Source of the DNA: Gemmatimonadota bacterium
Lineage (GTDB): Bacteria; Gemmatimonadota; Gemmatimonadetes; Palauibacterales; Palauibacteraceae
DNA: 64,000 bases
NCBI GenBank assembly: GCA_963666735.1
Contig: OY762926.1
Location: 1,568,001 to 1,632,000 of the forward strand
Direction: 5' to 3'
Below are positions 5,696 to 30,615 of this stretch, piece after piece. Made by a program: the position numbers and the translations under genes. How positions within the stretch are numbered: the stretch's first letter is position 1; each line of letters opens with the position of its first letter. The notes beneath the pieces were generated by a model. That model had not been told where the DNA came from. It saw nothing but the letters and a program-made list of their open reading frames with translations, and ran no database searches.

Positions 5696-6820
5696 ATGTA
5701 CACGACCTGCATCTTCTGCCACGGGAACCTCGGCAGGAACGAGGCCATCGAGGAGTTCCCCGTCGGCCGCCGGCTCGCCTTCGACGAGGCGAAGGGACGG
5801 CTCTGGGTCGTGTGCCGGCGCTGCGAGCGCTGGAACCTCTCCCCGCTGGAGACGCGGTGGGAGGCGATCGAAGCCTGCGAGCGCGCCTTCGAGACCACCC
5901 GCATGAAGGTCGCCTCGGACAACATCGGACTCGCGAAGCTCAAGGAAGGCCTCGAACTCGTCCGCGTGGGCGATCCCGTCCGGCAGGAGTTCGCGGCGTG
6001 GCGCTACGGCGACCAGTTCGGCCGCCGCCGCAAGCGGGCCATGCTCGTCACGGGCGCCGTGGGGGCGGCGGCGGGCGGGGTCGTCGTAGGCGGCACGATC
6101 GCCGGGTTCGCCATGGGCGGCATCTTCGCGCCGCTCTTCCAGGGGGCTCAGGCCTGGTATCGGGACCGCGTCCTGCTTCGTCTCAGGGACGAGCACGGCG
6201 ACCCCATCCGGATCCAGCGAAAGCACCTCTACACCTCCCGTCTCGTGCCGAGCGCGGACGCCTCGGGCTGGGACCTTCGCGTCGATCACATCCCGGGGTG
6301 GGATAAGCGGGACAGGACGAACAAGCGCAAGAACCACCGACATACGATGATCGTTCACGGGAGCGAGGCGATCGGGCTCGCGGGCCAGCTCATGGCCCAG
6401 GCCAACCGGCGCGGCGGCGCACGGAAGGCGGTTCGTGACGCGGTCCGGAAGATCGAGGAGGCCGGGCACCCGGACGCGTTTCTCCCCGTGGCGGCGCGCC
6501 ACGCCATGAGCGACTTCTCCGGTTCGGGGAAAGCAGATCTCCCGGCGAAGAAGATCGAGGGATTGATGAAGCCCCTGCCGGGCACCCTGGCGGGACTCAA
6601 GGTGGACATGCGGCTGGCGATCGAGATGGCGACGCACGAGCAGGCCGAACGCGAGGCACTCGAAGGGGAACTGAAGGAGCTCGAGGCGCGCTGGCGCGAG
6701 GCGGAGGAGATCGCCCACATCGCCGACAACCTGTTCGTCCCCGAGAGCGTGGACAGCTTCATCGCCGGCGAACGTTCGCAGATCGACGACGACCCGGCGC
6801 AGGGAGCCCCGACCGGCTGA
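5696..6820 (+). CDS. Hypothetical Zn-ribbon membrane protein, paralog 2
   Basis: ATG immediately after the TGA of paralog 1; same CxxC pairs and C-terminal WREAEEIAHIADNLF. Confidence 0.85.
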   Translation: MYTTCIFCHGNLGRNEAIEEFPVGRRLAFDEAKGRLWVVCRRCERWNLSPLETRWEAIEACERAFETTRMKVASDNIGLAKLKEGLELVRVGDPVRQEFAAWRYGDQFGRRRKRAMLVTGAVGAAAGGVVVGGTIAGFAMGGIFAPLFQGAQAWYRDRVLLRLRDEHGDPIRIQRKHLYTSRLVPSADASGWDLRVDHIPGWDKRDRTNKRKNHRHTMIVHGSEAIGLAGQLMAQANRRGGARKAVRDAVRKIEEAGHPDAFLPVAARHAMSDFSGSGKADLPAKKIEGLMKPLPGTLAGLKVDMRLAIEMATHEQAEREALEGELKELEARWREAEEIAHIADNLFVPESVDSFIAGERSQIDDDPAQGAPTG

Positions 6821-11248: not shown

Positions 11249-14200
11249 TTACGGAGCGAGGAGGGTCTCCATGTAGCGGTGGCCGGAGTCCGGGAAGAGG
11301 ATGTTCTTCCGGGCAAAGTCGTCGGGGCTCCAGGAGCCGTCGTCGTAGCGGGGGCGGAGGTCGGCGTGGGAGGTGGCGGACACGATATATGAGTCCAGAG
11401 ATACCGTGCCGGCGGGGACGCCGCTCCGTTTCGCGATTGCGTCCGCGAGATCCGCGAGCCGCTCGTGTAGGCGGGCCTTCTCATCCTCCGCGTAGGCGCG
11501 GGCGTGGAGCATGCCGTGCGGCTCGACGAACACGACGCGCTGGTGCCCCCCGTCCATCAGCCACAGGATGAAGTCCGGATAGAAGCCGCGGCCCTCCAGC
11601 GAGAAGCCCACGCCGCGTCCGCGAGCCTGGTTTCGGAGCAGGAAGAGTTCCGCTTTGGGGTGGAGAGTGCTCCCCGAGTCCCGCCACCATTCGCGCAGGT
11701 CGCGCACGAATCGCTTCTCGCTCTCGTTGAGGGGCGGCGGGGAGATCGTCACGTCGGCGTTCGAGGACTCGATGAGCAGTGGCTGGTACAGGTGACGGTC
11801 GAAGTGGATGCGGGCCAGCGGGCCGAGTTCCTGCTCGTAGAGCTTACCCCGCTGTTCGATGAGTTCCACGATCTCGTCGCGCAGAGCGCGGTCGGCGTGC
11901 GGGATCGTCACGACGTAGTGGGGCTCTGGCCCGGCGGGCCAGGCGCTGGCCGCCTCCAAGTCCACGTTCAGCTGAAGGTTGGGATCGGCGGCGTCCACCT
12001 CGCGGTACCTCATGCGCTCGGCCTCCCACGTCCGCTGCTCGGTCTGCCAGCACCGGTCGGCGGTTCGCCGGAGCACCGCGTGCACGATCGCTTGCAGATC
12101 CTCGCGGTCGTGCCAGCTCCGGGGCTCGAAGACGTGCTCGTCGGCCGATACCGTCGCGGCCCCGTCCTCGACGTGCGACCGCAGGCCGGCAGGGCCGGGG
12201 ATGGCCAGGGGCCGCATGCTCTTCTGCCGTCGGTGTTCCATGAGGTCGAGGTACGCCCGCTCCCAGTCCACCAGCCCCAGCGGTAGTTCGGCGGCGGGTC
12301 GCGTGTGCCCGGCTGCGCCCTCCATCGCCTCACTGCTGCGGGCCCCGCTCTCCCAGGAGGAGGCCCGGGTGGCGCGGTCGATCTTCACCGGAAGCCCCAT
12401 TCCAGCATCGAGCGCGAAGTTCGCCTCGGTCTCGAAGTCGCTGCCCACCGGGAGGACCGGAACCACGAGTCCTCGGCCCAAGAACTCCTCGTTGGCCCTA
12501 ACCGGTACGCGCAGCGTCACGCTGTCCCGCGCCTCAAGTCCCTCCCGTTCGAGGTAGGTGCGGAACTTCTTCATATAGTCGGCGCGCACGGCGAAGATGT
12601 TGAGCGTTTCCAAGAGCCCCACCTTGTCCGGGTGCGGTCCCTTCAGATAGGCGCTCCGCTTGAGGGACATCCCCCTGCCCTTGAGCCGCACGCCGCGGCC
12701 GAAGAGCTGGATGATCTCGGAACCCTCGGCCCGTCCCACGTTCATGAGGCCCATGTTCGACACGCGCCACGAGTTCCAGCCCTCCACGAACTTCTTGGCG
12801 CCGATGAGGACGTTGACCGTGGCCCCGGCCTCGTTCACCCGGCCGAACATCGAGCCGCCAACGGCGTCTTTTTCGAAGATGATCCCGGCATCGGCCGCCC
12901 GCGCCAACTTCTTGAACTTCGACGTGTCGCCGATGTAGGTGAGGCCGAAGTACTCATCCGACCCGAATGCCTTCAGGCCGATCTCGCCGGGAGCGCCGCG
13001 AATATCGCACAGGCGCAGCCCGCCGGGGCCCTCGGCGCGGAACACGGTGCGCAGGATGTCGGCGTAGATCTGGTCCGGGGACTCCCCGAGCTTCGCCAAC
13101 TCGTTGAAGCGGTCCGCGAACAGATCCACGTTCCACGCCGCATACAGCCCCGACTCGCCCCGTAGCAGCTTCGCGATCGTCTCCCGTGCCCAGTTGGGCT
13201 CGTTGAGCACACGGTGGAGGAAGAGTTGCACGGCAAGCACGTCGCTCGTGTCCCGCCCGCGCCGCCTGTAGACCGCGTTCACGCTCCCGCCCACAAACAC
13301 CCACAGCGGCTTCTCCAGATTGTAGACGCGCAGCGCGGAGGCGTTCTCACGGTGGGCGCGGAGCTGCTCGTAGAAAGAGAGGAGGTTGCCGAACAGAAGC
13401 TGGTCGGCGAGTTCCGGCGGCGGGTCCTTGCCCGACACGTTGAGGACGCGGAAGTCCTTGCCGAACCCGTCGCGGTGGAAGTAGGGGTACGAATAGTCGA
13501 ACAGGATCGACTTGCCGTAGTCGAGCGTGAGCTGGTTGTCGCGCGCAGCCGCCAGCGCCTGCCCGAAGGTCGCGCTGTACTCGAAGGTGAAGCCCCGGGC
13601 GGCCACGGCATCGCGCACCGCCCGCCACGCCTCCCCGCTCGCGCCCCGGTGACCCTCGTCCACGAATACGAGGTTGCGGTCGCCGAGCGCGGCCACTTCG
13701 ATGCTGACGCCCGTCCCCCTCCCGCGCCGCTTGTCGACCAGCTTCGTGATCTCGGTCACCCTCACGGTGCGGCGCCCGCCCGCCAGGAGTCCCGCCTCGC
13801 CGAAGCGCGCCGACGGGATGCCGGACGCGGCCATCTCCTCCATGTGCTGGGCGCTCAGTCCCTCGTTGGGCGTGATGAGGATGATGTTGTCCAGCCCCTC
13901 CGCCCCGCCGTAGTGGAGGAACTGGAGGTAGTTGAGGTGCATGATGAGCGTCTTGCCGCTGCCCGTCGCCATCCAGAAAGCGAGCTTGTTCAGGTCGTCC
14001 GGCGTGATCTCCCGGAGCGGGTACGAAGTGCCCAAGCCGTGGACCTTCTCCCGAACGTAGCGGTGGATCTCCCTCGCGAGGGCTTCCGGGGCGGTGGCCC
14101 GCCGGTCAAGGAAGAGTTCCGCGTACAGCGCCGCGAGTTGCTGGAAGTACCGTAAGGTGATCGGCTCGCGCCGTCCCCTGTTTATGGAGTCGAGGTGGCG

Positions 14201-14434
14201 TCGCACGTTGTCGTCGTACCGAGCCAGGTCGCCGGGCTCGACCAACAGGCTTTCTCGGCTCGCGAGCGTGCGGGCCACATGGCTGCGACCGTCCTCGTAC
14301 CCCTCGCGCGCATCCTTCAAGGCGTCGAAGAGCGCCTGGTTGGTCTCGAACCCGAACTGCCGGTTCGCCCAGCCCAGGAGCAGGAGTTCCGCCTCGAGTC
14401 GGCGGAGAATGGTGCTGGGGCGGCTAGGGGTCAT
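11249..14434 (-). CDS. res: Type III restriction enzyme Res subunit (SF2 helicase plus PD-(D/E)xK nuclease)
   Basis: MATGSGKT, FVDEGH, YSATF, QLFGRGVRL, C-terminal FYPDFILW...VFVEPHG; ATG 14434 overlaps the mod stop (TGATG). Confidence 0.9.
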   Translation of the reverse strand: MTPSRPSTILRRLEAELLLLGWANRQFGFETNQALFDALKDAREGYEDGRSHVARTLASRESLLVEPGDLARYDDNVRRHLDSINRGRREPITLRYFQQLAALYAELFLDRRATAPEALAREIHRYVREKVHGLGTSYPLREITPDDLNKLAFWMATGSGKTLIMHLNYLQFLHYGGAEGLDNIILITPNEGLSAQHMEEMAASGIPSARFGEAGLLAGGRRTVRVTEITKLVDKRRGRGTGVSIEVAALGDRNLVFVDEGHRGASGEAWRAVRDAVAARGFTFEYSATFGQALAAARDNQLTLDYGKSILFDYSYPYFHRDGFGKDFRVLNVSGKDPPPELADQLLFGNLLSFYEQLRAHRENASALRVYNLEKPLWVFVGGSVNAVYRRRGRDTSDVLAVQLFLHRVLNEPNWARETIAKLLRGESGLYAAWNVDLFADRFNELAKLGESPDQIYADILRTVFRAEGPGGLRLCDIRGAPGEIGLKAFGSDEYFGLTYIGDTSKFKKLARAADAGIIFEKDAVGGSMFGRVNEAGATVNVLIGAKKFVEGWNSWRVSNMGLMNVGRAEGSEIIQLFGRGVRLKGRGMSLKRSAYLKGPHPDKVGLLETLNIFAVRADYMKKFRTYLEREGLEARDSVTLRVPVRANEEFLGRGLVVPVLPVGSDFETEANFALDAGMGLPVKIDRATRASSWESGARSSEAMEGAAGHTRPAAELPLGLVDWERAYLDLMEHRRQKSMRPLAIPGPAGLRSHVEDGAATVSADEHVFEPRSWHDREDLQAIVHAVLRRTADRCWQTEQRTWEAERMRYREVDAADPNLQLNVDLEAASAWPAGPEPHYVVTIPHADRALRDEIVELIEQRGKLYEQELGPLARIHFDRHLYQPLLIESSNADVTISPPPLNESEKRFVRDLREWWRDSGSTLHPKAELFLLRNQARGRGVGFSLEGRGFYPDFILWLMDGGHQRVVFVEPHGMLHARAYAEDEKARLHERLADLADAIAKRSGVPAGTVSLDSYIVSATSHADLRPRYDDGSWSPDDFARKNILFPDSGHRYMETLLAP

Positions 14435-17103
14435 CAGCCGCCTGTGCCGCCCGCTGGCGCGAACATGCGCTGCTTGAAGAGGTTGTCCAGCGGACGCGCG
14501 TCCTCCACCATCGAGTCCCCGTTCATCCAGATCTCGTCCGCCCCCGCCGTCAGGTCGTGCTTCGCCACGAAGTCCCGATCCCGCTCCCGGTCCTCCGCCG
14601 TCCACCCCTCGGTGGTCCGCCAGATGACGACCGCTGATCGCCCATCCCGCGTGTCGCCGGTGTAGACGAGATAGCGGCGGCCATCGTCGTCGTACGTCCG
14701 CCGCGTGCGGACGGCGAGCCCGAGCAGGTAGTTGAAGGTCTCCGCGAGATCCACCCTCTCATCCGACCCGTCCCCGTTTCCACCTAGGCGGAGCTTGTAA
14801 TCGAACGGCCGTTCCAGTGCCGCGACGTTGAGCAGGGTGGCGCTCCCCTTGGTCTCCCAGCGGAGCATGTAGCGCAGCAGGTAGTCCTCCAGCTCGAACA
14901 GACTCTCCTCCGCCTCCTCGAACTCGATGTTGTTCAGCGCGTCTTCGTAGCTCTCCAAGCGGAAGTACTTGATGATGCGCGGGCCACGCTCGGACTCCTC
15001 CGCCGTGGCCTCCCGCTTCGCCACCCCGTTCTTCCACTCCGGGGAGAACGCCACCTTCTTCAGCCGTGGCATCACGACGGTGTCGAAGTGCTCACCCATC
15101 TCCACGAGGATGAACTTGCGGCGGCCTCCGTCCTCACGATTGAGGTTGATGACGGCGTGCCCGGTGGTGCCCGATCCCGCGAAGTAGTCGAGGGTGGTGG
15201 ACGAACCGTCCATGCCGCAAACCCGCAGGCAGTCCTCGACTAGCCCCACCGCCTTGGGATAGTCGAAGGGTTTGGCTCCGAACAGATCCTTGGAGGTCCG
15301 GGGACCGCGATTTGACGAAGCGTAGCGCGGTTCACCCCACCAAGTCTTGGGAATCGCCTTCGTGTCCATCCGGATCATGAAATCTACGCTTATGGTCCCA
15401 TTCTTCCGCCGAACACGGTATTGTTCCGGGTTGCTGGTGATCTTCTCCGGACCGTGGTGCCAGTTCTTCTCTATGATCTCCTCTCCCTCGCCTCTGACAG
15501 GCAGGATCTCGACTTCGTCCTCTTCGGGAGCTTCGAGCACGTCGTATCGGCGCTCGGCCGCGATGTACCGAAGCTTCGGCACGCGGATCCGATCGTCCTT
15601 TGCGACATAGATCGGGAAGAACAGCTTGGGCCGGTCCTCACGACGGTCGTTGGAGCCGTGCCGTATCAAGTTGTTCCAATCGTAGCGACCGATTTCGTCC
15701 TCGAATCGGTAACGCGCGAGCTCCCGCTCCGTCTTCAGTAGCGATCCCGGCGCCGCCTGTTCGTTTCCGAAGAACAGCGCGAATTCGTGGCTCGGCGAAA
15801 GCTGCCCTCGCGACTTGCGGCCAGCCGGATTGGAGCGCACGACAACGGTGCCGAGCTCCTTCGGCAGGAGATCCTGCATGAGCATCCGCAGCCGGGAGAC
15901 CTCTTCGTCGTCGATCGCGCAACTCAGGATGCCTGTTGGTCCAAGCAGTTCCCGGGAGAGCGACAGTCGGTCCGAGATCAGCGACAGCCAGGAGGAGTCC
16001 TTGTAGTTGTTCTTATACAGAATCGCCGAGGCGGCCGTATTGTACGGTGGATCGATGTAGATGCTGGAAAGCCCTGCCCGGTATCGTTCCTCCAGCAGAT
16101 TCAAAGCCTGCCAACTCTCGCTCTTTACGAGTAGGCCGTCCGTCTTGTCGTCGACATCGTCGAGCGCGGCGAGCAACTCGTCAACGACCTCCGGATCGAA
16201 GTGTCGGGTATCGACGAGGATGCCCGGATTGCGCGACAGGAAGTCGCGCCTGGTAGCTGCAGAATCGTCAACACGGTCGAACAGAGATTCGTCGTTCGGG
16301 AGGCATCCCAAGGCCCGCCATTCGTTCCACTGTTCATCGCACTCCAGCACGTACGGGTGAAGCTCCTCCGGCAGCAGCCTTGCGGCCACGCAGTACTGAA
16401 CGTCAACGACGAACTTCCGTTTCTCCCAGAGCATCTTCTGGAAGCCCTCGATCTGCGCGAGGAATTCGATCACGTTCCGGCCGACCTCGCGGATCACGCG
16501 CATTTTGTCGAGCCAAGCGTCGGCTCCCCGCTCCCCGCCTGCCTCGATTGCGTCGAGACTCAGAACCTCCGACTTGAGATAGAAATCCAACTCGCGTGCG
16601 AGGAACCCCATCAGATCGCGATGCACGAAATAGTCCGAAGTGATCCGGCGGGCAAAGCGACGGGCGTGGTGCGTGAACAGCGTCGGTGCATCGTCGGCCC
16701 CCGCTCCTCCCCAACGGTCCAGCAGTGCCTGCGCTGCTTCCGGGTTTCCGGTCAGCGATTCGAGGATCGCCGCCTCGGCACGCTCCAGGATGGCGTCTTG
16801 CTGCCCGTTCCTGCCCATCTCCCTTGCCTCCGCGGGAGTGAGCGGACGGTGATCGAAAGGCAGATCGAGCGTGCGGCTCGCGTCATGCCATTCGGCGGCG
16901 TCCAGGCGGGGGAAGAAGAAGCGCCTCTTGCCTTTGACGTCGTTCTGGTCGATGTCCGCCGTGCGCAGGAAGAGACGGATCGAGACTCCAGACGGCGTCC
17001 GGTAGGTGTAATCCTTGAAGTGCTCCGCCGACTTCACGTAGTACTGGTCGCGGTTCGCCCAGTGGAAGTGGATCTCCTCGCCGTTGTAGGGGACGACGTA
17101 GGG
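14434..17103 (-). pseudogene. mod: Type III Mod N6-adenine methyltransferase, 3' part (gene split by IS)
   Basis: IYIDPPYNT (motif IV) precedes DYFAGSGTTGHAV (motif I), beta-class order; frame continues upstream of the called ORF as PYVVPYNGEEIHFHWANRDQYYVK up to the IS. Confidence 0.9.
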
Positions 17104-17139: not shown

Positions 17140-18177
17140 TCAGTTTAGTGAGGCCTCCTTCCTCCCGTTGGCCGACTCCGATCCATCAACCGGCGTGACG
17201 GGGAGTGCGCGGTTGATCCAGACTTCCTCCGGGAGTTCCACAGCCCTCGGCGGGCCGACGACGAAGCGGTCGGGGCGGGCGGCGTAGGCCGCGGCCAGCA
17301 CGTTCCGCCGTTGCTCGATCACCTCGGGGGCGCGGCCGAGGTGGACCTGCTCGGGGGTGAGCAGGCCGATGCCGCCGTGGCGGTGTTGGGTGTTGTACCA
17401 CTGGAAGAACTCCCGGCAGAAGTCCTTCGCCTCCTCGATGCAGCCGAACCGACCGGGGAAGCCCGGGTGATACTTGAGGGTCTTGAAGTGCGCCTCCGAG
17501 TACGGGTTGTCGTTCGAGACCCTGGGGCGGCCCAGCGACTGCGTGACGCCCAGGTCGGCCAGGAGCTGCGCCGTGCACTTGGCCGTCATGGGGGATCCCC
17601 GATCCGAGTGCAGCGTGAGGACCCGGGGCCGCACACCGTGCCTGAGACACGTCTCGCCGACCAAGTGTCCGGCCAGGCCTGCGGTCTCGCGCTCCGCCAC
17701 CATCCATCCGGTGACGTAGCGGCTGTAGATGTCCAGGATCACGTACAGATAGAAGTACCGCCACTTCTCCGGCGCCAGCAGCCGGGCGATGTCCCAAGAC
17801 CACACCTCGTTCGGTGCCTTGGCCACCACCTCGGGCTTCGGGTGGTTGGGATGGCTGCGCTGAGCCCGGCGCTCGCGGACCGCCCGGTTCTCGGCCAGGA
17901 TCCGGTACATCGTCCGCTCCGAACACAGATAGACGCCCTCGTCCAGCAGCGTCGCGTACACCTCCGCCGGCGCGCGGTCGGCGAAGCGCGGCGAGCACAG
18001 CACGCCGAAGACCTCCGCCCGCTCCGCCGCGTCCAGGGCCCGGGCGGGAGCCGGCCGGGGCCGCCGCCGCCCGGTCTTCGGCCTCCGGCGACGGTAGAAC
18101 GTGGCGCGCGCGACCCCGAGGGCCTCGCACGCCGCGCGTACGCCCACGTGCCCGGCCAAGCCTCCGGCCGCGCTCAA
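17140..18177 (-). CDS. IS3-family transposase OrfB (DDE integrase core)
   Basis: PNEVWSWDI, LHSDRGSPM, SNDNPYSEAHFKTLKY. Confidence 0.93.
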   Translation of the reverse strand: MSAAGGLAGHVGVRAACEALGVARATFYRRRRPKTGRRRPRPAPARALDAAERAEVFGVLCSPRFADRAPAEVYATLLDEGVYLCSERTMYRILAENRAVRERRAQRSHPNHPKPEVVAKAPNEVWSWDIARLLAPEKWRYFYLYVILDIYSRYVTGWMVAERETAGLAGHLVGETCLRHGVRPRVLTLHSDRGSPMTAKCTAQLLADLGVTQSLGRPRVSNDNPYSEAHFKTLKYHPGFPGRFGCIEEAKDFCREFFQWYNTQHRHGGIGLLTPEQVHLGRAPEVIEQRRNVLAAAYAARPDRFVVGPPRAVELPEEVWINRALPVTPVDGSESANGRKEASLN

Positions 18178-18608
18178 GAGCGCTTCCCGTCCCCGGGGCT
18201 CACGCCCGGCAGCCCCGCAACTTTTCCCTGGACATCGATGATGATGCGCGCCTTGCGGAGTTCCTCGCGCAACCGCGCGTTCTCCCGCTCCAGCTTCCGC
18301 ACCCTCCTCGCCTCACGCTTCCCGCCCGAGGGCTTCGGTCCGCGTCTCTTCGCCAGCCCCCGCAGCGATCCCTCCCGCGCCGCTTTCCGCCACGCCGACA
18401 GGTGCGAGCCGTACAATCCCTCGCGCCGAAGCAACGCTCCGATCTCGCCCGACGTCTCGCAGGCGTCCGCCTCCTCGACGATCGACAGCTTGTACGCCGC
18501 CGTGAAGCGCCGCCGCGTCGCCTTCGCCGACACCTCCGGATCCGCCGCGGAAGCCGCCGCGCTTCGCCCGCCCTCCCCTGAAGAGAGGGGCGTTCCGTTC
18601 ACCTTCAT
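18174..18608 (-). CDS. IS3-family transposase OrfA (HTH)
   Basis: RRRFTAAYKLSIVEEADAC...IGALLRREGLYGSHLSAWR; stop overlaps the orfB start. Confidence 0.9.
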   Translation of the reverse strand: MKVNGTPLSSGEGGRSAAASAADPEVSAKATRRRFTAAYKLSIVEEADACETSGEIGALLRREGLYGSHLSAWRKAAREGSLRGLAKRRGPKPSGGKREARRVRKLERENARLREELRKARIIIDVQGKVAGLPGVSPGDGKRS

Positions 18609-18699
18609 TCCTTCTCCTCGTTCCATCCTCAATCTCTCTGTCTCGCCCTACTCTAATCTCTTGCTCCTCTCGTGTCTCGCGCGTGTTGGCAGAGAGGGG

Positions 18700-19212
18700 A
18701 TGCTCCCACGAATAGCGTCGCTTCGGAACGAAGTCGCCGTCCTGGTAGTACCGGCTGAAGAAGGCGTACAGGTGGTTGTAGATGTCGCGCCGCACGTCTC
18801 CGGCCGACTCGGCGTGGCGTGCCCGCTCGCGCCACAGGATGTACTTCTTCCCGAGCGGAGTCTCCTCGTACTTGACGAGTTCTCCGTTCGGCGCGATCAC
18901 ATTCTCGCCGAAGGAGTCCACAACCTGCTGCCGCGTTTCCTCGAAGGTGTCGGCCCGCTTCCCCTCGGTCTCGAGGGCCCCTTCGCTTACGGCCTCCTCG
19001 ATGGCGCCCGGCAGATCCCGGTCGATGTAGCGGTCGATGACCTCCCGCTTGTGGTTCATGATCCGGTAGATGCCGAAATCCAGATCCGCGCAGTCGAACT
19101 GGAACAACTCGCGCAGGAGCCCCTGGAACCGGGCCTGCTCCTCCGGCGGCGGCGAGGCCTGTGTCGAGGCGTTCTTCGGTGCCCACCGCTTGTGGAACGG
19201 TGTTCGTGTCAA
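18700..19212 (-). pseudogene. mod: Type III Mod methyltransferase, 5' part
   Basis: GGGAG RBS then TTG 19212; LLRELFQFDCADLDFGIYRIMN...IYNHLYAFFSRYYQDGDFVPKRRYSWEH, joining in frame to the 3' part if the IS is removed. Confidence 0.88.
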
Positions 19213-19688
19213 CCTACGGCTCCCGGTCCGGTGGAACGGGTCGGCAGGGATTCGACGGGGTCCGTGTACCGAGTAGCATGGCACGGAGTTTGCGCCAGAA
19301 CGTGGCTTGAGGCAATGCGCCCGGCGGCAGGCCCCGGTGCAAGAGCAAAGCTGTTGCCCGGAACGTCCACGCTTCTATTGCGTCCACGGTGCGTCGGGAC
19401 ACACGGTTACCGAGGATCGACCCCATCGAGTCCAGAGAAAACGGGTGCGCAAGCCCGATGGCGGAGGGTCGTGCTTCAGCTGCTTCAGGGCCGGGGGCAC
19501 CGGAAGGTGCAGGCGCGCTTGGCGGCGAAGCGGATCCGAGCGCGCAAGAATCGGGTCTTGCGGCCAACGCAGGAGCACGGGTTGCCGGCAACTGCCGCCC
19601 CAGCACCCTCCCATGTTCACCGACCTTAGGTGGTTCCAGATGGCCGTGTCGAGTATTCTTAGGTGGGTGATGCGGCGGTACATCAGGG

Positions 19689-21149
19689 GTGGCTCCGATG
19701 GAAATCCAAGAGATTCACAACAGAATCCGTGATCGATTTGCGTACCTTTCCGCTACGGTGGAAGGCGCGTCTGCGATGGGGCAGAGCGACATCCACCGCC
19801 TGTCCGAGGCCATCGTTTGCCCTGTCCTCAAGATCGTCCTGAAACTCCCGGCTCTTCGCAATCTCAACTCGGTTGAGCGAGACAACTTCCCCGGCATCGA
19901 TCTTGGAGATCCCGTAGCCGGCGTTGGCATCCAAGTCACCGCCCGCGCGGATGCTCCGAAGATCCGGAGCACGATCAAGAAGTGCATCAGCCACGGCCTT
20001 CATCAGACCTATCCGCACCTTCGCTTCTTTGTGTTGACCAAGAAGCAGAGTACGTACCGCCTTAACGTGAAGCCTGATCTCAGCGGCAAGCTAAGATTCG
20101 ACCCCCGTGTGGACATTCTCGACTACACAGATGTTCTTAAGGTCCTCGCGAAGCTCCCCACAGCAGACCTATCGGCCGTGGAAGAAGTTCTTGAGGCCGA
20201 TCTCGGCATACGCTCCGCACCCAGCATACGCAGCTCCTGGACTTCCACGGAGGAGCACGGCTGGCTCAACCTACTCCCAATCACTTTCCCTTCTCGATTG
20301 TATCTCGGAGAGGTGATTCCAGAGGCGCGACCCAGGAGCCGCTCGCGGCACCGCAATCCTCGCCATCTTGCACGAAAGTATTTGTCTGACAACAGGCTAA
20401 CGTTCTCATCCGATTGGAGTATCTACGATGGTCAGGTCATCACTTTTCACGACCTCCGGCAACGTGATCTGCCGCTATCGCGACTGGTCGATCCTGGCAC
20501 GGTGACCGATTTCGCCACCGAGGAGTACCACAGCGTTGACAACAACTACCGTCACGCCTTCAAGCATCTTCTCCGCCTCTGCATGCAACAGATGCTCTAT
20601 CGCCGCGGGGTTTTCTGGCAACATAAGGTCGGGCTTTTCTGCTTCGGCCCTCCTGACGACGGACGCATGAAGCGATATGAGTCCTGGGGCGACAAGAAGA
20701 CTGCGACTCGATTGGTGTTCAAGCGCGTACCGAAGCGGGACGCGCCAGAAGAAATTTACCATTGCAAACATTTCGCTTTCCGTGCCACTTTTCACGTGCT
20801 CTCTTCGACTTGGTATGTGTCGATCCGACCTGAGTGGTTCTTCAGTTACAATGGTTATCACAGGTGGTTCCACGGCGCTGAGAGGGTCGACTACTTGAAG
20901 CGCCGCGAGAAGAACCAAACGGTGTTCAATCACGTCAAGTTTCTTGCGCATTTTCTCGGCGGGGGGACGCATCCCGACCTCTTCCGGACCCTGCCGACTT
21001 ATCCCTTTCTCACGTTTGGACCACTCGCATCCGTCGCCGGCCTTCCGCAGCTCGATGACAATCTTTGGCGATCTGCCGAAGTAGGGCCGATCCATGCGAC
21101 ACTTGTGGATCCGAAGGGTGTGATTCCCCTCGAGTTGGAGGGCTGGTGA
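19689..21149 (+). CDS. SMEK (restriction-endonuclease-like) domain fused to APAZ domain; effector partner of short Argonaute
   Basis: N-terminal DIHRLSE...LRNLN...NFPGIDLGD...IQVTA...KIRST (SMEK-like); C-terminal NLLPITFP.....ITFHDL...FKHLLR...KHFAFRATF....WYVSIRPEWFFSYNG...LKRREKNQTVFNHVKFL (APAZ-like). Start GTG 19689 or ATG 19698. Confidence 0.8.
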   Translation: MAPMEIQEIHNRIRDRFAYLSATVEGASAMGQSDIHRLSEAIVCPVLKIVLKLPALRNLNSVERDNFPGIDLGDPVAGVGIQVTARADAPKIRSTIKKCISHGLHQTYPHLRFFVLTKKQSTYRLNVKPDLSGKLRFDPRVDILDYTDVLKVLAKLPTADLSAVEEVLEADLGIRSAPSIRSSWTSTEEHGWLNLLPITFPSRLYLGEVIPEARPRSRSRHRNPRHLARKYLSDNRLTFSSDWSIYDGQVITFHDLRQRDLPLSRLVDPGTVTDFATEEYHSVDNNYRHAFKHLLRLCMQQMLYRRGVFWQHKVGLFCFGPPDDGRMKRYESWGDKKTATRLVFKRVPKRDAPEEIYHCKHFAFRATFHVLSSTWYVSIRPEWFFSYNGYHRWFHGAERVDYLKRREKNQTVFNHVKFLAHFLGGGTHPDLFRTLPTYPFLTFGPLASVAGLPQLDDNLWRSAEVGPIHATLVDPKGVIPLELEGW

Positions 21150-22570
21150 AGCTTAGCGTGCTACCGGAGCCCAGTCTCGAGTTCGGGCGCGGGCAGCACG
21201 TCTGCCCTCGTGCCGGGATCTACGAACATGACGTGTACGATTCCGTTTTGGCGGTGCGTCGAGAACACTTGTGGGTCGGAGCAGTCGGAGTCAGCGACGA
21301 CCTCGAGACTCTTGCCACATGGATACAACGGTGCCAAGGCCCCATTCCGGCCAAACTCAATGCCCGGCAACCAACACTATTTCCTGCATTTTGCGGCTTC
21401 AATCGGGATGTCGGCTTCCGCGCAAACATGTCGTTGCAGGATGAGATCACACGCACGTTACCGAAAGCAGCTGTCCGGAACATCGTCCGGATCAAGCAGT
21501 TCAATCGGCGCGTGGAGGCTGCCGTTCAACTCTTCTTTCCTCACGTCAAGTTTCTTTGTCAGAATCGAACGGTCGATGTGGTCGTTTGCGTCATCCCAGA
21601 TGACCTCTACGACGTCATCTCCAAGAGGAGTACCGCCTCGGCGGACGATCACATAAAGGATTCGGATACCGATGACCTCGTCGAGGCGAATTTTCGTAGG
21701 GCTCTAAAGGCAGCTTGTCTGCATTTGGGTGTACCCTTGCAACTTGTCCGCGCGAAATCTCTCAAGCCCAATCCACCGGGCATGCAGGACGACGCGACCA
21801 AAGCTTGGAATTTCTGCACCGCGCTCTATTACAAGGCGAATCAGACGGTACCCTGGCGACTCCCCCTCGATGCGAATGCGCCGAGCACATGCTACGCCGG
21901 GATAGGCTTCTTCAGGAGCCGGGACAGGAGCGTGCTGCACACGAGCCTGGCTCAGATCTTTGACGAGCTCGGAAACAGTGTCATCCTTCGAGGTACGCCA
22001 GTTGGCGTTGACAAGAACGACAGGCGACCGTTCCTGCGGGCGGATCAAGCGGAGGAATTGCTGGCAAGAGCTCTGGGGGAATACCGGGATGCGCTGGGCC
22101 ACGCTCCGGCTCGTATGGTTCTACATCGGACGTCACGCATTCGACCGGATGAACTTGAAGGTTTTGAGTCTGCCACGTCGACGGCGGGGGTGTCCACGCT
22201 GGATTGTGTGATTGTGCGCGACACGGACGTACGATTGTTTCGTCAAGGACTCTATCCTCCGCCACGAGGGACGATGATGTCATTGTCGAAGGCGGAGCAC
22301 GTTCTATACACGCGCGGATCGGTCCAGTACTACCACACCTATCCGGGTCTATATGTGCCTCAGCCGCTACGGATTACCACGGAGCACACAGAGGGATCCC
22401 CCAGCATGATAGCTAAGGAAATCATAGCGCTCACCAAGATGAACTGGAACAACACGCAGTTCGACGGCAAGTACCCCATCACGCTCCACTGCGCCCGACA
22501 AGTTGGCAGCATCCTCAAATATCTGGACGAGGGCGAAAGACCACCGATCAGCTACAGCTACTACATGTAA
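21146..22570 (+). CDS. ago: Short prokaryotic Argonaute (MID-PIWI), catalytically inactive
   Basis: GTG start overlaps upstream TGA (GTGA); LPEPSLEFG, NFRRALKA....GVPLQLV, QDDATKAWNFCTALYYKA...PWRL, CYAGIGFFR, YPPPRGT, LYTRGSV, EIIALTKMNWNNTQFDGKYPITL; 474 aa with no N/PAZ region. Confidence 0.93.
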   Translation: MKLSVLPEPSLEFGRGQHVCPRAGIYEHDVYDSVLAVRREHLWVGAVGVSDDLETLATWIQRCQGPIPAKLNARQPTLFPAFCGFNRDVGFRANMSLQDEITRTLPKAAVRNIVRIKQFNRRVEAAVQLFFPHVKFLCQNRTVDVVVCVIPDDLYDVISKRSTASADDHIKDSDTDDLVEANFRRALKAACLHLGVPLQLVRAKSLKPNPPGMQDDATKAWNFCTALYYKANQTVPWRLPLDANAPSTCYAGIGFFRSRDRSVLHTSLAQIFDELGNSVILRGTPVGVDKNDRRPFLRADQAEELLARALGEYRDALGHAPARMVLHRTSRIRPDELEGFESATSTAGVSTLDCVIVRDTDVRLFRQGLYPPPRGTMMSLSKAEHVLYTRGSVQYYHTYPGLYVPQPLRITTEHTEGSPSMIAKEIIALTKMNWNNTQFDGKYPITLHCARQVGSILKYLDEGERPPISYSYYM

Positions 22571-22624
22571 GTGTGACGCTCCGCGGTGTCGGATGCTTCC
22601 CGCCGCAGCTCGACGCCGGTCGAT

Positions 22625-23605
22625 TCAAGTCGGCAGGATACAGTGGTCCTTGAACAGACCCACGACGATACGGCCTTCGCGAAGCCCGGACGAACTCTCC
22701 GACGGCGGCTCGTAGAGAAAGTGAATCCGGTCAATGTTCGGTCGCAGTTTGACGTGCCACCAGAACACCTTCTCACGGCCTCGATGCCAACGAGTGCGGT
22801 CGCGCTGCGACGGAGAGTGTCGCTTGGTACGGCCATTCTCATCCGAGATTGGCGCACCAACGTTCGCAGACAAGACGTCTCCCAATTCGCCTGGGGCAGC
22901 CCGAAGCTCGCAAAAGCACGAGGCACCGTGATCGCTGAGGCCGCCTAAACAGTGAACGAGCTCATCTCGAACAGCAATATATGGACGGCTGAAGTCCCGG
23001 AGACCTCGCCAGATGTCGTCGGCCCAGCCGAGTGCCGGAAAAGCCGACCGCGCCAAGCTTGCGAACTTCGCCTCATCGGCGTTCTCCAGTCTGACGATTG
23101 ATCGAAAGAAGGCGACGTGGTGGGACTCGCGGGTGACAAAAAAGATTCCTAGCTTGGTGTCGGTTATGGTCACCGACACCCTCCCAACTGGCATTTCGCC
23201 GAGGGGAAGCGGAAGAACCGCTACCTGATGCCCCTCCCGGCACGAAGCGTGCGCCCATGCCGCTCCGGGAGCGCGACGCACATCCCCGTCGAATACCGCA
23301 TCGTATTCGGCTAACGTAGAGTCATCGAAGTCGTTGGCCCGGTCGAGGGCCAAGTATAGTTGGGAGGCGAGGTCGCGGTCGAGGCGTACAGGACAGCTTG
23401 AATCGAACAGCAGCGAGAAAAGCTGAAGGCCGCCACCAAGATCGGCCTCATAGTATTCCTTGTACTTCGCGACGCGTTCGCCTCGGCGTCGGGCCACTTC
23501 GAGTCGATCAAGCAGCCGCTCGATGGCATCGGTCAACACCCCGACAGGATTGGCTTTGCTCGCCCCGGCCCATGAGGACTCGTCTAGTACGAAGCGGATG
23601 CTCAT
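22625..23605 (-). CDS. Putative toxin/nuclease effector, Menshen NsnC-like (RelE-like C-terminus)
   Basis: C-terminal FWWHVKL....DRIHF...IVVGLFKDH; ATGA overlap with the upstream ATPase. Confidence 0.6.
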   Translation of the reverse strand: MSIRFVLDESSWAGASKANPVGVLTDAIERLLDRLEVARRRGERVAKYKEYYEADLGGGLQLFSLLFDSSCPVRLDRDLASQLYLALDRANDFDDSTLAEYDAVFDGDVRRAPGAAWAHASCREGHQVAVLPLPLGEMPVGRVSVTITDTKLGIFFVTRESHHVAFFRSIVRLENADEAKFASLARSAFPALGWADDIWRGLRDFSRPYIAVRDELVHCLGGLSDHGASCFCELRAAPGELGDVLSANVGAPISDENGRTKRHSPSQRDRTRWHRGREKVFWWHVKLRPNIDRIHFLYEPPSESSSGLREGRIVVGLFKDHCILPT

Positions 23606-24723
23606 GAGTCACGTCGCCGCCGGGCGGCCAAGGCCGAGAGGTCGACCTGAGTTTGGTCAAAAAACCCGGCTGGCCAGTCGGTGAGCTGGCCGGTTCGCCG
23701 CAGCCCCAGCGACTCAACAGCCGAGCCCTGTTGATCCTCGGCTCTGAAGAAGTGGATCGCGGCCTGCCTCTCGCGAAGGACTGCGCTGCCTTGGGCGACC
23801 GCTACGCGGATGCCGTTGAGCACGTGATCGCTGTGGGTTTCGATGAAGACTTGCACGCCGTCGGCTGCGACTTGGGCCAGAAAGGCGCCGATAGCGGATT
23901 GGCCAGCCGGGTGTAAGTGGGCCTCGGGGTTCTCTACGAGGAGCAGCCCGCCGACTGGTGCGCGAAGAGCTGCGACGATGACCGGCAACGCATAGGAGAT
24001 ACCGAATCCGGCGTTAGGCGCGCGCATCCACTCGGTCCGAAGGCCCGGGGTCTTGAAACGCAGAAAGGTGACCGAAGTGTTGGGAAACCATCCCGCATCA
24101 ATCTGTGTCGGGCGAACGATCCTGCCGATCCAGCTCTCCGTCTGGTATAGGAGACCGGTAAGCGTCGTCTCCGCCGTGTCGATGGCCAGTCGGCCATCTC
24201 TCACGCGCGACCGACCGAAGGAGGCTAGAACCTGAGCTACGAACTCCCCGCGCACACCGACTCCGAGTTCTTCTATGTTGGCAGCACTCGCGCCGAGCAC
24301 GTCCCGCGGCCCCAGCCGCTCCGCGCACAAGTAGGCAAATTGCGGTGGCGGTTCAGCGATTGCTCCCTCGTAGTCGGGAGATCTGTCTACAACAGCTGCG
24401 TTCAAGGTCCGTTCGTTCTCAGGGGCACGAAACGACCAGCGCCAATGTTTGCCCTCGGCCTCAAGGACTTCGATGGCCGCAGGCTCGTCGCCGGCTTCGC
24501 GATGGATGACGTCTTCGGCACTACCCAGCTCCAAGCTATCGACGCCGTTCAACTCGACATGGCTCTGCCCGGATTGCCGCGTCATCTGTCGTGCTAGGAG
24601 CAGAGAATGCAGGACGGAGGTCTTTCCGGCGCCATTGGCACCTGTCAAGACGGTGAGTTCGGCGGTCCTCAGTTTCAACTCGTGAAACCGCTTGAAGTTC
24701 TCAAGCCGGATCTCAGCGATCAC
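23602..24723 (-). CDS. ABC-type ATPase with DUF3696, Menshen NsnB-like
   Basis: LENFKRF, GANGAGKT, GFGISYALPVIVA, LLVENPEAHLHPAGQS, ETHSDHVLNGIR, C-terminal WPAGFFDQ. Confidence 0.88.
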   Translation of the reverse strand: MIAEIRLENFKRFHELKLRTAELTVLTGANGAGKTSVLHSLLLARQMTRQSGQSHVELNGVDSLELGSAEDVIHREAGDEPAAIEVLEAEGKHWRWSFRAPENERTLNAAVVDRSPDYEGAIAEPPPQFAYLCAERLGPRDVLGASAANIEELGVGVRGEFVAQVLASFGRSRVRDGRLAIDTAETTLTGLLYQTESWIGRIVRPTQIDAGWFPNTSVTFLRFKTPGLRTEWMRAPNAGFGISYALPVIVAALRAPVGGLLLVENPEAHLHPAGQSAIGAFLAQVAADGVQVFIETHSDHVLNGIRVAVAQGSAVLRERQAAIHFFRAEDQQGSAVESLGLRRTGQLTDWPAGFFDQTQVDLSALAARRRRDS

Positions 24724-25876
24724 CGGAGCACCTCGCGCGCCACTTCGCGTACACTGCCGAGCCGCGTCTTTACGTTGCGGACATCACCCGTACTGCCGCT
24801 GATGGATCCGACAAAATCGGAGTCGTGGGTCATCATCTCGCGTGCCCGGCGGACCAACTCCGCAGTTTCCGCCCGGACTGTGGTTTCACCATAGTCCGCC
24901 AGCACGGTCCCCCAGCTCTCGAACAAGGCCCGGTTGATTGGGTTGCGCCGTTGGGCGTCCCATGGCCATTTGCGGAAAGCATGGTCTTCGAACACGGCGT
25001 AGCAGTTGGTCATACCGCGGACGAAGTCGGCACGAAGCCGGTCAAGATTCTGGCAGGCCGGTCGTCGAGTTCCTGGGTCGCTGCTCCGAGGAAGTCGTCG
25101 AAGTTGCCATACTGACCGTACTCACTAGGTGTAAACAGGCGGAAGGCGACGAACCGTAACGTGACCTCTCGGTCCGCCATCCGCGGATGGCCACTAAGCG
25201 CACCTCCCGTGGCAAGCGAGAAGCTCTCATCGGTGGCCAACTCCTTCAAGAACCGGCGGGACCTAGCACCGCTCATGCAGTGGCGGATCTCCTGGGGACT
25301 CAGCGGACTTCCGCCTGTATTGATGCGTCGAAAAATGTCGAACTTCACCCGGTAAGGCGTCTGCGGGTCAATCACATGGGCCACGAACTGCGCACCGTTA
25401 AGCCTTCGACGAAATAGCGCAGCCAGATCGTCGAATCCTTGGCCCTCCAGATCATGCAGGTAGGCCACAGCGCCGAGCTTGAAGGCCTTCTGGTGTACGT
25501 ATCGGAAGATCGTTGTGAGGCGCTGGACCCCGTCGACCACCTGGAGCTGACCTGAGGCATTCTCGTTGAAGTAGAAGGAAGGCAGCGGGATGCCCAGCAG
25601 GAGCGACTCGATGAGGCCCCAACGCTGCCGAGGCTTCCAGACGTAGTGCCGTTGAAAATCCGGAGCTAGATCGATGTCACCGTCAGCGATCATGTCGACT
25701 ACTTGGCGCAGCGAGTAATGCTTCGTGTGAATCCGAATCTTCTCCGGATCCCAAGGCTCCGGATCGTCGGACGATGGTGGGGCTTGGGATTCGATCTCGA
25801 CGCCCGTTGCCTCGCTCTCGAAGTACTCCTCGCGTACCTCGTCTTCCGTCCCCAGGGACTTGTCACGGGTTGTCAT
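24720..25876 (-). pseudogene. DUF262 (ParB/GmrS-like) protein, Menshen NsnA-like, frameshifted near 25060
   Basis: LAPDFQRHYVW, LIESLLLGIPLPSFYF, VVDGVQRLTT, FRRINTGG; the alternative frame reads QNLDRLRADFVRGMTNCYAVFEDHAFRK, continuous with ORF 24720-25013. Confidence 0.82.
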
Positions 25877-26118
25877 GTATTCGGCTCCGTCCAAGTTTTT
25901 TCACTCGATCCCGGGTGGCACCGTGATCGGGCGGGCGTCTCGCTCTGGGGTCACACACCGGCGGCTTCTCCAACGACCTGCGACATCGACTGACGCTGCT
26001 TGAACCACGATAGCGATTCGCAGGCGCGTCTGCGACGGAATCTAACTCGATTCAACTCGTGCCTCCGTCTCTACGCCCACTTACAACGCCGCAGCCCACG
26101 AGGCCCGACGCTGCAGAG

Positions 26119-29400: not shown

Positions 29401-30615
29401 ATGAACAGTATGATGATCCCCCGATTGCTGCGGCCGCAGGTTGAGGAGCACCTCTCGCTCTTCCCCGCGGTCGGACTCCTCGGTCCGCGTCAGGCCGGGA
29501 AGACGACGCTGGCGAGGATGATCGCCGACGCCCGGGCCGAAACCCACCTCGGGGAGCCTGGCCGGTCGCCGGGCGGCCTGTACCTGGATCTGGAGAATCC
29601 CGCGGACCTCGCGCGGCTGGCCGAGGGATCGGGGTATCTTGAGGGAGTGGCGGACCGACTCGTCGTGCTCGACGAAATCCAGCGGGCGCCGGAGCTGTTC
29701 CGTGAGCTGCGGGGGATCATCGACCGGAGGATCCGGCGCGGCGAGCGGGCTGGACAGTTCCTCATCCTCGGATCCGCCTCGCTCGACCTGCTGCGCCAGT
29801 CCGGAGAGAGCCTCGCGGGCCGTATCGGCTATCTGGAACTCGGCCCCCTGGATGCGCGCGAAATCGAGGAGAGCCAACTCCTGCGCCTGTGGAGCCGCGG
29901 AGGTTTCCCGCCGAGCTTTCTCGCCCCGTCGGACGAGGCGAGCGCGCTATGGCGGGAGAACTTCATCCGGACCTATCTCGAGCGCGACATCCCTCAGCTG
30001 GGACCGCGTATCCCCGCCGAGACGCTGCGTCGCCTCTGGACGATGCTCGCGCACTCGCAAGGCGGGCTGTGGAACGCCTCGACCTTCGCGCGGAGTCTGG
30101 GCGTGGACGGAAAAACCGTCGCCCGGTACGCGGATCTGCTCGTCGATCTCCTCCTCGTGCGCCGGCTGCAGCCGATCCACGTGAACGTCCGCAAGCGGCT
30201 CGCGAAATCACCGCGCCTCTACCTCCGCGACAGCGGAGTCCTGCACGCGCTGCTCCGCATCCCGGACGTCGACTATCTGCTCGGCCACCCCATCGCAGGC
30301 GCCAGCTGGGAGGGCTTCGCGATCGAAACCCTGATCCGGGCGGCGCCGGACCGGCTCTCACGGCCGGGCTTCTACCGGACGGCGACCGGGGTGGAGATCG
30401 ACCTGATCCTGGAAGTGCCGGGACCCCGAAGGTGGGCCATCGAGATCAAGCGCGGGCTCGCGCCGCGGATCGGAAAGGGGTTCCGCATCGCGCTCGAGGA
30501 CGTGAAGCCCGACAGGGCCTTCGTCGTATACGGCGGTGACGACCGCTATCCGGCCGGAGGCGGAGTCGAGGTCATCGGCCTGCGGGAACTGGCGACCGAG
30601 CTGGCCGGTCTTTGA
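29401..30615 (+). CDS. AAA_14 ATPase with DUF4143 and C-terminal PD-(D/E)xK-like motif
   Basis: GPRQAGKTTLA, LDEIQR, ILGSAS, ESLAGR, KSPRLYLRDSG, EIDLIL...AIEIK. Confidence 0.9.
   Translation: MNSMMIPRLLRPQVEEHLSLFPAVGLLGPRQAGKTTLARMIADARAETHLGEPGRSPGGLYLDLENPADLARLAEGSGYLEGVADRLVVLDEIQRAPELFRELRGIIDRRIRRGERAGQFLILGSASLDLLRQSGESLAGRIGYLELGPLDAREIEESQLLRLWSRGGFPPSFLAPSDEASALWRENFIRTYLERDIPQLGPRIPAETLRRLWTMLAHSQGGLWNASTFARSLGVDGKTVARYADLLVDLLLVRRLQPIHVNVRKRLAKSPRLYLRDSGVLHALLRIPDVDYLLGHPIAGASWEGFAIETLIRAAPDRLSRPGFYRTATGVEIDLILEVPGPRRWAIEIKRGLAPRIGKGFRIALEDVKPDRAFVVYGGDDRYPAGGGVEVIGLRELATELAGL

Follow-up and report, generated by a model that had tools for sequence, protein, structure and literature searches.

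A short Argonaute gene pair, probably of clade S2B, with a SMEK-APAZ effector in a Gemmatimonadota genome

A 64,000-nucleotide stretch of a Gemmatimonadota genome (contig OY762926.1, positions 1,568,001 to 1,632,000; hereafter referred to as the window) carries two overlapping genes, encoding an APAZ protein with an N-terminal SMEK domain and a short prokaryotic Argonaute (pAgo). Profile, sequence and structure comparisons place this pair among the clade S2B short-pAgo systems with a Mrr-like (SMEK) effector, of the KjAgo/KjMrr-APAZ type found in Kordia jejudonensis and named SPARMA, an architecture that is already catalogued. A first-pass annotation of the window had proposed the pair as a candidate new immune system, knowing of no characterised SMEK-APAZ/pAgo pair. 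This has been overtaken, as the Kordia pair has been described, a structure of its Mrr domain is deposited (PDB 26bh), and models of the architecture exist in the PADLOC library.

Both open reading frames (ORFs) lie on the plus strand at the coordinates previously proposed, and all of the sequence strings quoted for them were found in place. Gene 1 (19689..21149) encodes the SMEK(Mrr-like)-APAZ effector, with 486 amino acids when read from the GTG at 19689; gene 2 (21146..22570) encodes the MID-PIWI short pAgo, with 474 amino acids, also from a GTG. Neither frame is interrupted. At the junction, GGCTGGTGAAGC, the two genes share four bases, GTGA, which hold both the GTG start codon of gene 2 and the TGA stop codon of gene 1. 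Translation of gene 1 probably begins at the ATG at 19698, which gives a protein of 483 residues, because M4 aligns with the first residue of many homologues and an AGGGG sequence is found about 8 nucleotides upstream of this codon. The protein-database entry for gene 1 is shorter still (457 amino acids), and would leave the SMEK domain without its first helix.

The N-terminal domain of gene 1 (residues 1-175, 19689..20213) is recognised as SMEK_N by Pfam (residues 12-151, expectation value (E) 1e-33, 116.6 bits against a cut-off of 27) and by NCBIfam (E 2.8e-20), and is a predicted PD-(D/E)xK-type nuclease effector. The PADLOC profile Aga_REase-PNTD1-PNTD2 (PDLC02399) spans residues 4-463 with an E of 8.2e-121; the complete architecture is therefore already represented, among the proteins associated with Argonaute, in this 2023 library of defence systems. 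The profile matches of both genes lie well beyond what chance would give. In the PDB, residues 22-167 match 26bh, the Mrr domain of the K. jejudonensis Mrr-APAZ pAgo system, with an E of 1.1e-15. Pfam returned no DUF4365 or Mrr family match for gene 1 at E <= 1, only SMEK_N and one weak, unrelated family, in agreement with the first-pass annotation, which had called the domain SMEK. A strict SPARDA assignment, with a DREN/DUF4365 effector, was considered and is ruled out, since this Pfam match is missing and the DUF4365-APAZ chains of the PDB align with gene 1 only from residue 189 or 241. The suggested link of this domain to Lamassu gained no support, as no LmuA model of PADLOC matched gene 1 (E <= 1) or the domain taken by itself (E <= 0.001).

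I collected homologues of gene 1 with a word-based search, which yielded 117 protein clusters at E <= 0.001, nearly all of which (114/117) possess PF21941. Gene 1 was aligned with the 107 homologues of at least 440 amino acids among P0004-P0117, without the seven shorter ones in that range and without P0003 (the shorter database version of gene 1), P0118 and P0119. The motifs S39-E40, N58-L59-N60, N66-FPGIDLGD-74 and I81-QVT-84 are all present in gene 1. In the resulting 108 sequences, E40 (19806-19808), D71 (19899-19901), D74 (19908-19910), Q82 (19932-19934) and K91 (19959-19961) are invariant, and T84 (19938-19940) is a threonine in 106 and a serine in two. The same set (E40, D71, D74, Q-x-T and K91) is invariant in a 34-row alignment of the SMEK domain, nine rows of which come from proteins without APAZ, and the Kordia domain (26bh) reads QIT at the position of Q82-x-T84. 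The QVT string of gene 1 had been taken to suggest a distinct active site at this locus; the alignments indicate instead that Q-x-T is a signature of the whole SMEK family and no local peculiarity.

An AlphaFold2 model of the SMEK domain (predicted local distance difference test, pLDDT, 91.8) shows an alpha-beta-beta-beta-alpha-beta order. E40 is found in helix 34-50, D71 and D74 at strand 72-74, Q82 and T84 in strand 79-84, and K91 at the start of helix 89-101, followed by strand 110-115. The putative active-site residues thus occupy the places expected for a PD-(D/E)xK site, an arrangement that suggests that the motif lysine has moved to the helix (K91). The first-pass annotation had expected a Cap4-like fold for residues 1-175; among the best 50 rows listed by VIA-align for the model, NucC and Card1 are present and Cap4 is absent, which is no evidence that the folds differ.

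The remaining part of gene 1 (about residues 186-486, 20244..21146) had been proposed to be an APAZ domain, and the PDB, Foldseek and the PNTD1-PNTD2 part of the PADLOC models all agree with this. At the sequence level, residues 189-451 match the DREN-APAZ chain 9jsb_D with an E of 2e-13, with weaker matches to HNH-APAZ (9om4_A, E 3.9e-06) and DUF4365-APAZ chains. The complete protein, modelled with AlphaFold2 from a 33-row alignment (mean pLDDT 85.1), folds into two bodies, between which residues 175-185 form a linker of low confidence. For the C-terminal body, Foldseek ranks APAZ chains of SPARDA first (9qbl_A, TMt 0.79, root-mean-square deviation 3.5 over 282 columns; 9vx1_E, TMt 0.85), followed by the APAZ domains of SPARHA and SPARTA (E 1e-11 to 1e-8 for the latter). 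An acidic C-terminal tail, described as an autoinhibitory element, is conserved in S2A and S2B APAZ proteins according to the accessible part of PMC10899771. The tail of gene 1 is weakly acidic, with four D/E and two K/R in its last 27 residues.

Gene 2 matches the PADLOC profile pAgo_I (PDLC02376) from end to end (residues 2-474 on profile positions 2-455 of 455, E 7.5e-170), and solved short pAgos match it over its full length. The best PDB matches are the SPARDA pAgos 9qbp_B (6.7e-85), 9qbl_B (4.8e-82) and 9jsb_A (NbaAgo, 1.5e-72); the SPARHA pAgo 9om4_B gives an E of 8.8e-70, the SPARTA pAgos 1e-32 to 1e-25, and long Argonautes about 3e-3. Pfam finds no match in gene 2, with no Piwi family even at E <= 1, and the only NCBIfam Argonaute match is below threshold, so the identification rests on the PADLOC and PDB matches. 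The accessible text of two papers (bioRxiv 10.1101/2023.06.08.544223; PMC12738770) gives DUF4365, HNH and Mrr-like (SMEK) domains as the effectors of clade S2B. The ranking of the PDB matches, with SPARDA and SPARHA far above SPARTA, together with this literature, fits an assignment of gene 2 to that clade.

The sequence of gene 2 reads G252-I-G254 and H327-R-T-S330 at two positions of the PIWI domain, G254 (21905-21907) and T329 (22130-22132), which, going by the GxD and RDG motifs, would be the columns of the catalytic aspartates of active Argonautes. Neither position carries an aspartate, as had been noted in the first-pass annotation. In an alignment of the window pAgo with 51 others excised from related loci, none of the 52 sequences has an aspartate at 254 (A, S or G) or at 329 (S or T); the aligned residues of the SPARDA pAgo 9qbp_B are likewise G and T. 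R184, R185, K188, Q199 and K230 (21695-21835), candidates for the MID pocket that would hold the 5' end, are invariant in 52/52. Short pAgos without the catalytic tetrad are described in the available portions of PMC9097488 and PMC10899771.

Related loci were gathered from one genome per species: of 398 pattern matches, 385 encoded a relative, and the analysis was confined to the 80 best. A full-length SMEK-APAZ gene with sequence downstream is found in 58 of these 80 loci; in three the gene is cut by a contig end, and in 19 there is a SMEK domain only. All 58 full-length loci possess a pAgo downstream on the same strand, directly so in every case except one (L073), and it is cut by a contig end in three; the same four-base gene overlap is found in 45 of the 58. 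In the exception (L073:7441-8913), a 660-base gap follows the SMEK-APAZ gene and only residues 224-474 of the pAgo, its C-terminal half, were matched, so that the gene may be damaged. These loci are found in Gemmatimonadota, Chloroflexota, Acidobacteriota, cyanobacteria, many Proteobacteria and one archaeon of the Methanocellales. The nearest relatives among the best 80 are metagenome-assembled genomes (MAGs) labelled Longimicrobiales and Candidatus Multivorans, with 63-65% identity for the SMEK-APAZ protein and 76-79% for the pAgo. Taken together, these loci firmly indicate that the pair moves as a single, translationally coupled cassette.

The closest described counterpart, K. jejudonensis KjAgo with KjMrr(SMEK)-APAZ, has the same two-gene architecture, namely an N-terminal SMEK/Mrr-like domain fused to APAZ, together with a short pAgo. 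About one third of the residues are identical between its SMEK domain and residues 22-167 of gene 1 (counted from the printed alignment), and the two share the E...NLN...NFPxIDLxD...QxT...K motifs. The Kordia pair comes from a different host and is only a distant sequence relative. Three papers, as far as their accessible text goes, report that the Kordia proteins form a heterodimer with nuclease activity, and credit Kim et al. 2020 for this (PMC10810196; PMC12205087; bioRxiv 10.1101/2023.06.08.544223). The excerpts of the last of these also count 175 SMEK-bearing APAZ proteins and state that the topology of DUF4365 differs from that of Mrr nucleases. The name SPARMA appears in the portion available of bioRxiv 10.1101/2025.04.08.647717, where truncated dimers of the Kordia system are modelled among the SPARDA filament-like interfaces. 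A literature search, thin on subscription journals, found no newer dedicated study of SMEK/Mrr-APAZ beyond the papers cited, although 26bh shows that structural work exists; nor did it retrieve in vivo defence data or a whole-complex structure for these systems.

Among the other short-pAgo systems, SPARDA (Novosphingopyxis, Xanthobacter, Enhydrobacter, Thermocrispum) provides the closest solved pAgos and APAZ domains, and shares with the window pair its clade, S2B, and the logic of a guide-activated nuclease, but its effector is DUF4365 (DREN) where that of the window is SMEK. SPARHA (HNH-APAZ with a short pAgo) likewise belongs to S2B, has a nuclease effector and matches the window pair in both pAgo and APAZ sequence, but its effector has an HNH fold instead of the PD-(D/E)xK-type SMEK. 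SPARTA (TIR-APAZ with a short pAgo) is more distant: the overall heterodimer design is similar and the APAZ fold recognisable, but it belongs to clade S2A, and its TIR NADase effector depletes NAD+ without nucleic-acid cutting.

A guide-activated nuclease, as put forward in the first-pass annotation, is the best mechanistic reading of the window pair. It is quite probable that the APAZ protein and the pAgo form a heterodimer in which a guide (probably RNA) recognises invader DNA, and that this recognition activates the SMEK nuclease and leads to DNA degradation. The domain identities and the operon coupling come from the analyses above, and the steps downstream of them are drawn from homologues. 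The APAZ part would bind the MID-PIWI protein and complete an Argonaute-like nucleic-acid cleft, as in the SPARDA, SPARHA and SPARTA complexes and the Kordia heterodimer. The pAgo, which is probably catalytically dead, would load a short guide, most likely RNA, through the R/K/Q/K pocket of its MID domain, and would then scan for complementary plasmid or phage DNA. Target binding may free or assemble the SMEK domains, probably by oligomerisation as in the SPARDA and SPARHA filaments, upon which the putative PD-(D/E)xK-type site (E40, D71, D74, Q82, T84, K91) would cut DNA, largely without sequence specificity, and the invader or the infected cell would be stopped. For the Kordia homologue, the nuclease activity reported in vitro is only weak. 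A complex prediction for the self-association of two SMEK copies (residues 1-175) gave a score of 0.00 and a mark of 0.42, which is uninformative either way.

Several observations weigh against this reading, the most general being that complex formation, the type of guide, the substrate and any defence phenotype are predictions. Others concern the SMEK domain itself. The lysine of the canonical (D/E)xK motif is a threonine across the SMEK-APAZ family, so catalysis needs another lysine, for which K91 is the candidate. With Foldseek, the isolated SMEK model has no PDB match at E <= 0.001, the best being the restriction enzyme EcoT38I with an E of 0.016. VIA-align, run against 48,161 chains, places restriction-enzyme nuclease domains among its best rows (the LlaBIII nuclease domain, Z 7.9; FokI, 7.8; AspBHI, 6.8; MspJI, 6.7), together with Avs4 (6.8), but a Z of 8 or less is middling, and according to the tool a value below 8 may reflect only a common arrangement. 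The domain might then be no nuclease at all, and with a threonine for the motif lysine have another role, such as binding or signalling. The presence of Q-x-T in place of (D/E/Q)-x-K in 106 of the 108 members, these middling structural matches, and the term weak applied to the Kordia activity in the excerpted text of PMC12205087 would all suit such a role. However, E40, D71 and D74 are invariant together with a lysine, K91, at the start of the next helix, which is the pattern of a metal-dependent PD-(D/E)xK site with its lysine relocated, and the accessible sources do report nuclease activity for the Kordia homologue. I therefore regard a non-nuclease SMEK domain as very improbable.

The literature on the Kordia system is a further point against the proposed mechanism, as the citing papers, in the parts available, disagree on its activity. 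It is summarised as RNA-guided 'target DNA cleavage' in PMC10810196; in PMC12205087, KjAgo is described as using guide RNA against DNA and as having, with SMEK-APAZ, 'weak collateral nuclease activity' on double-stranded and single-stranded DNA. The first of these summaries speaks for a guided, target-specific nuclease, in which SMEK replaces the lost slicer and cuts only the DNA bound by the pAgo, without collateral damage or cell death. The second ascribes collateral activity, albeit weak, to the very same system, and the closest solved relatives, SPARDA and SPARHA, are described (in sources seen as excerpts) as collateral nucleases switched on by filament assembly. In addition, SMEK is tied to APAZ in the model by the low-confidence linker mentioned above, which also argues against cutting confined to the bound target, and I consider this alternative unlikely. 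More broadly, there is a small but appreciable chance that the mechanism of SMEK-APAZ differs from that of SPARDA and SPARHA, with target-proximal cutting, another substrate or another assembly mode in place of filament-driven collateral DNA degradation. This is suggested by the non-canonical E-D-D-QxT site found throughout the family, with its lysine on the next helix, and by the weak and disputed activity of the only studied homologue.

The guide-activated nuclease also presupposes an expressed and working cassette, and two observations on expression go against it: a simple scan, covering one promoter type only, found no sigma-70-like promoter in 19200-22900, and the neighbouring defence systems are broken, as an IS3-family element interrupts the mod gene of the type III system next to the pair and NsnA is in two pieces. 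The cassette could then be silent or decaying, its frames intact yet unexpressed or non-working, and the one conserved position at which gene 1 departs from its family, H289, where 98 of the 108 sequences have R, would be in keeping with decay. As the first-pass annotation had stated, however, the pair itself is intact beside these broken neighbours. Both frames are open, the translationally coupled four-base overlap is kept, and of the 61 columns in which at least 90% of the sequences agree, gene 1 follows the majority in 60, including all six putative active-site residues. Since the promoter scan was also restricted to a single type, a silent or decaying cassette appears quite improbable, and the guide-activated nuclease stays the preferred reading.

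The SMEK domain is also found outside of Argonaute systems. None of the loci with a SMEK domain only (0/19) has a pAgo nearby, and in L043, L049, L062, L064, L078 and L080 (ORFs from near base 6001) the domain stands at the N-terminus of large proteins that lack APAZ. Some of these are NACHT/AAA_16 STAND NTPases with TPR repeats, part of which correspond to PADLOC PDC-M54A (E 2.7e-188); others possess HTH_upstream_double_PIN and PIN-TPR-GreABC domains. These proteins, too, keep the invariant E, D, D, Q-x-T and K residues. That the same module heads STAND NTPases and PIN-TPR proteins supports the view that SMEK is a general effector module.

The cassette also stands out from its genomic surroundings. 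Its GC content is 0.565, compared with 0.678 for the rest of the window, and the DNA similarity to the two nearest loci is limited to 19695-22569, that is, to the two genes. The operon gene is single-copy in this 3.98-Mb, one-contig genome, and a search of 40 relatives (24 from its genus and 16 from its order, with a completeness of 83-98%) did not find the cassette in any of them. The low GC content, the end of homology at the gene borders and this negative search point to horizontal acquisition of the two-gene cassette. A scan of the window for transfer RNA genes found none, so no integration site linked to such a gene was seen.

The surrounding genes place the cassette in a defence island. 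On its 5' side, all on the minus strand, is a type III restriction-modification system with a res gene that looks whole (11249-14605, 1118 amino acids) and a mod gene in two pieces: the main part (14434-17037) covers positions 250-1024 of the PADLOC MTase_III profile, and an N-terminal piece (about 18708-19116, within the ORF 18313-19284) covers positions 11-133. Between these lies the IS3-family element (17140-18632), consisting of orfB (17140-18177, rve) and orfA (18174-18632, HTH_Tnp_1). On the 3' side, again on the minus strand, is an NsnABC-like system, in which NsnC (22625-23605, PADLOC E 1.8e-67) and NsnB (23602-24723, E 5.7e-98) are whole, and NsnA is split into two ORFs overlapping by four bases, 25010-25894 (profile positions 14-268 of 385) and 24720-25013 (285-383 of 385). 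The island extends further to an AAA_14/DUF4143 ATPase on the plus strand (29401-30615), similar to PDC-S01, a PADLOC candidate system (E 5.7e-82).

In four of the related loci (L053, L040, L047 and L054, from records labelled Comamonas kerstersii, a proteobacterial MAG, Stenotrophomonas and Ectothiorhodospira), the SMEK-APAZ/pAgo operon is part of a common stretch of up to 13.4 kb. Identity is 94-98% around the operon, and about 87% in the flanks of L047 and L054, which suggests the recent transfer of a larger mobile island. A segment of an NsnB-like ATPase is found about 0.9 kb 3' of the pAgo in these four loci, as well as in four others.

The window pair opens no new class of immunity, and its value lies mainly in annotation: it is a clean, intact example, in a high-GC genome, of the least studied nuclease branch of the short Argonaute systems. 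What remains of interest is this thinly studied SMEK/Mrr-like branch itself, for which the analysis provides a conserved set of putative active-site residues (E40, D71, D74, Q82, T84 and K91), evidence for a coupled cassette, and the occurrence of SMEK on STAND NTPases.

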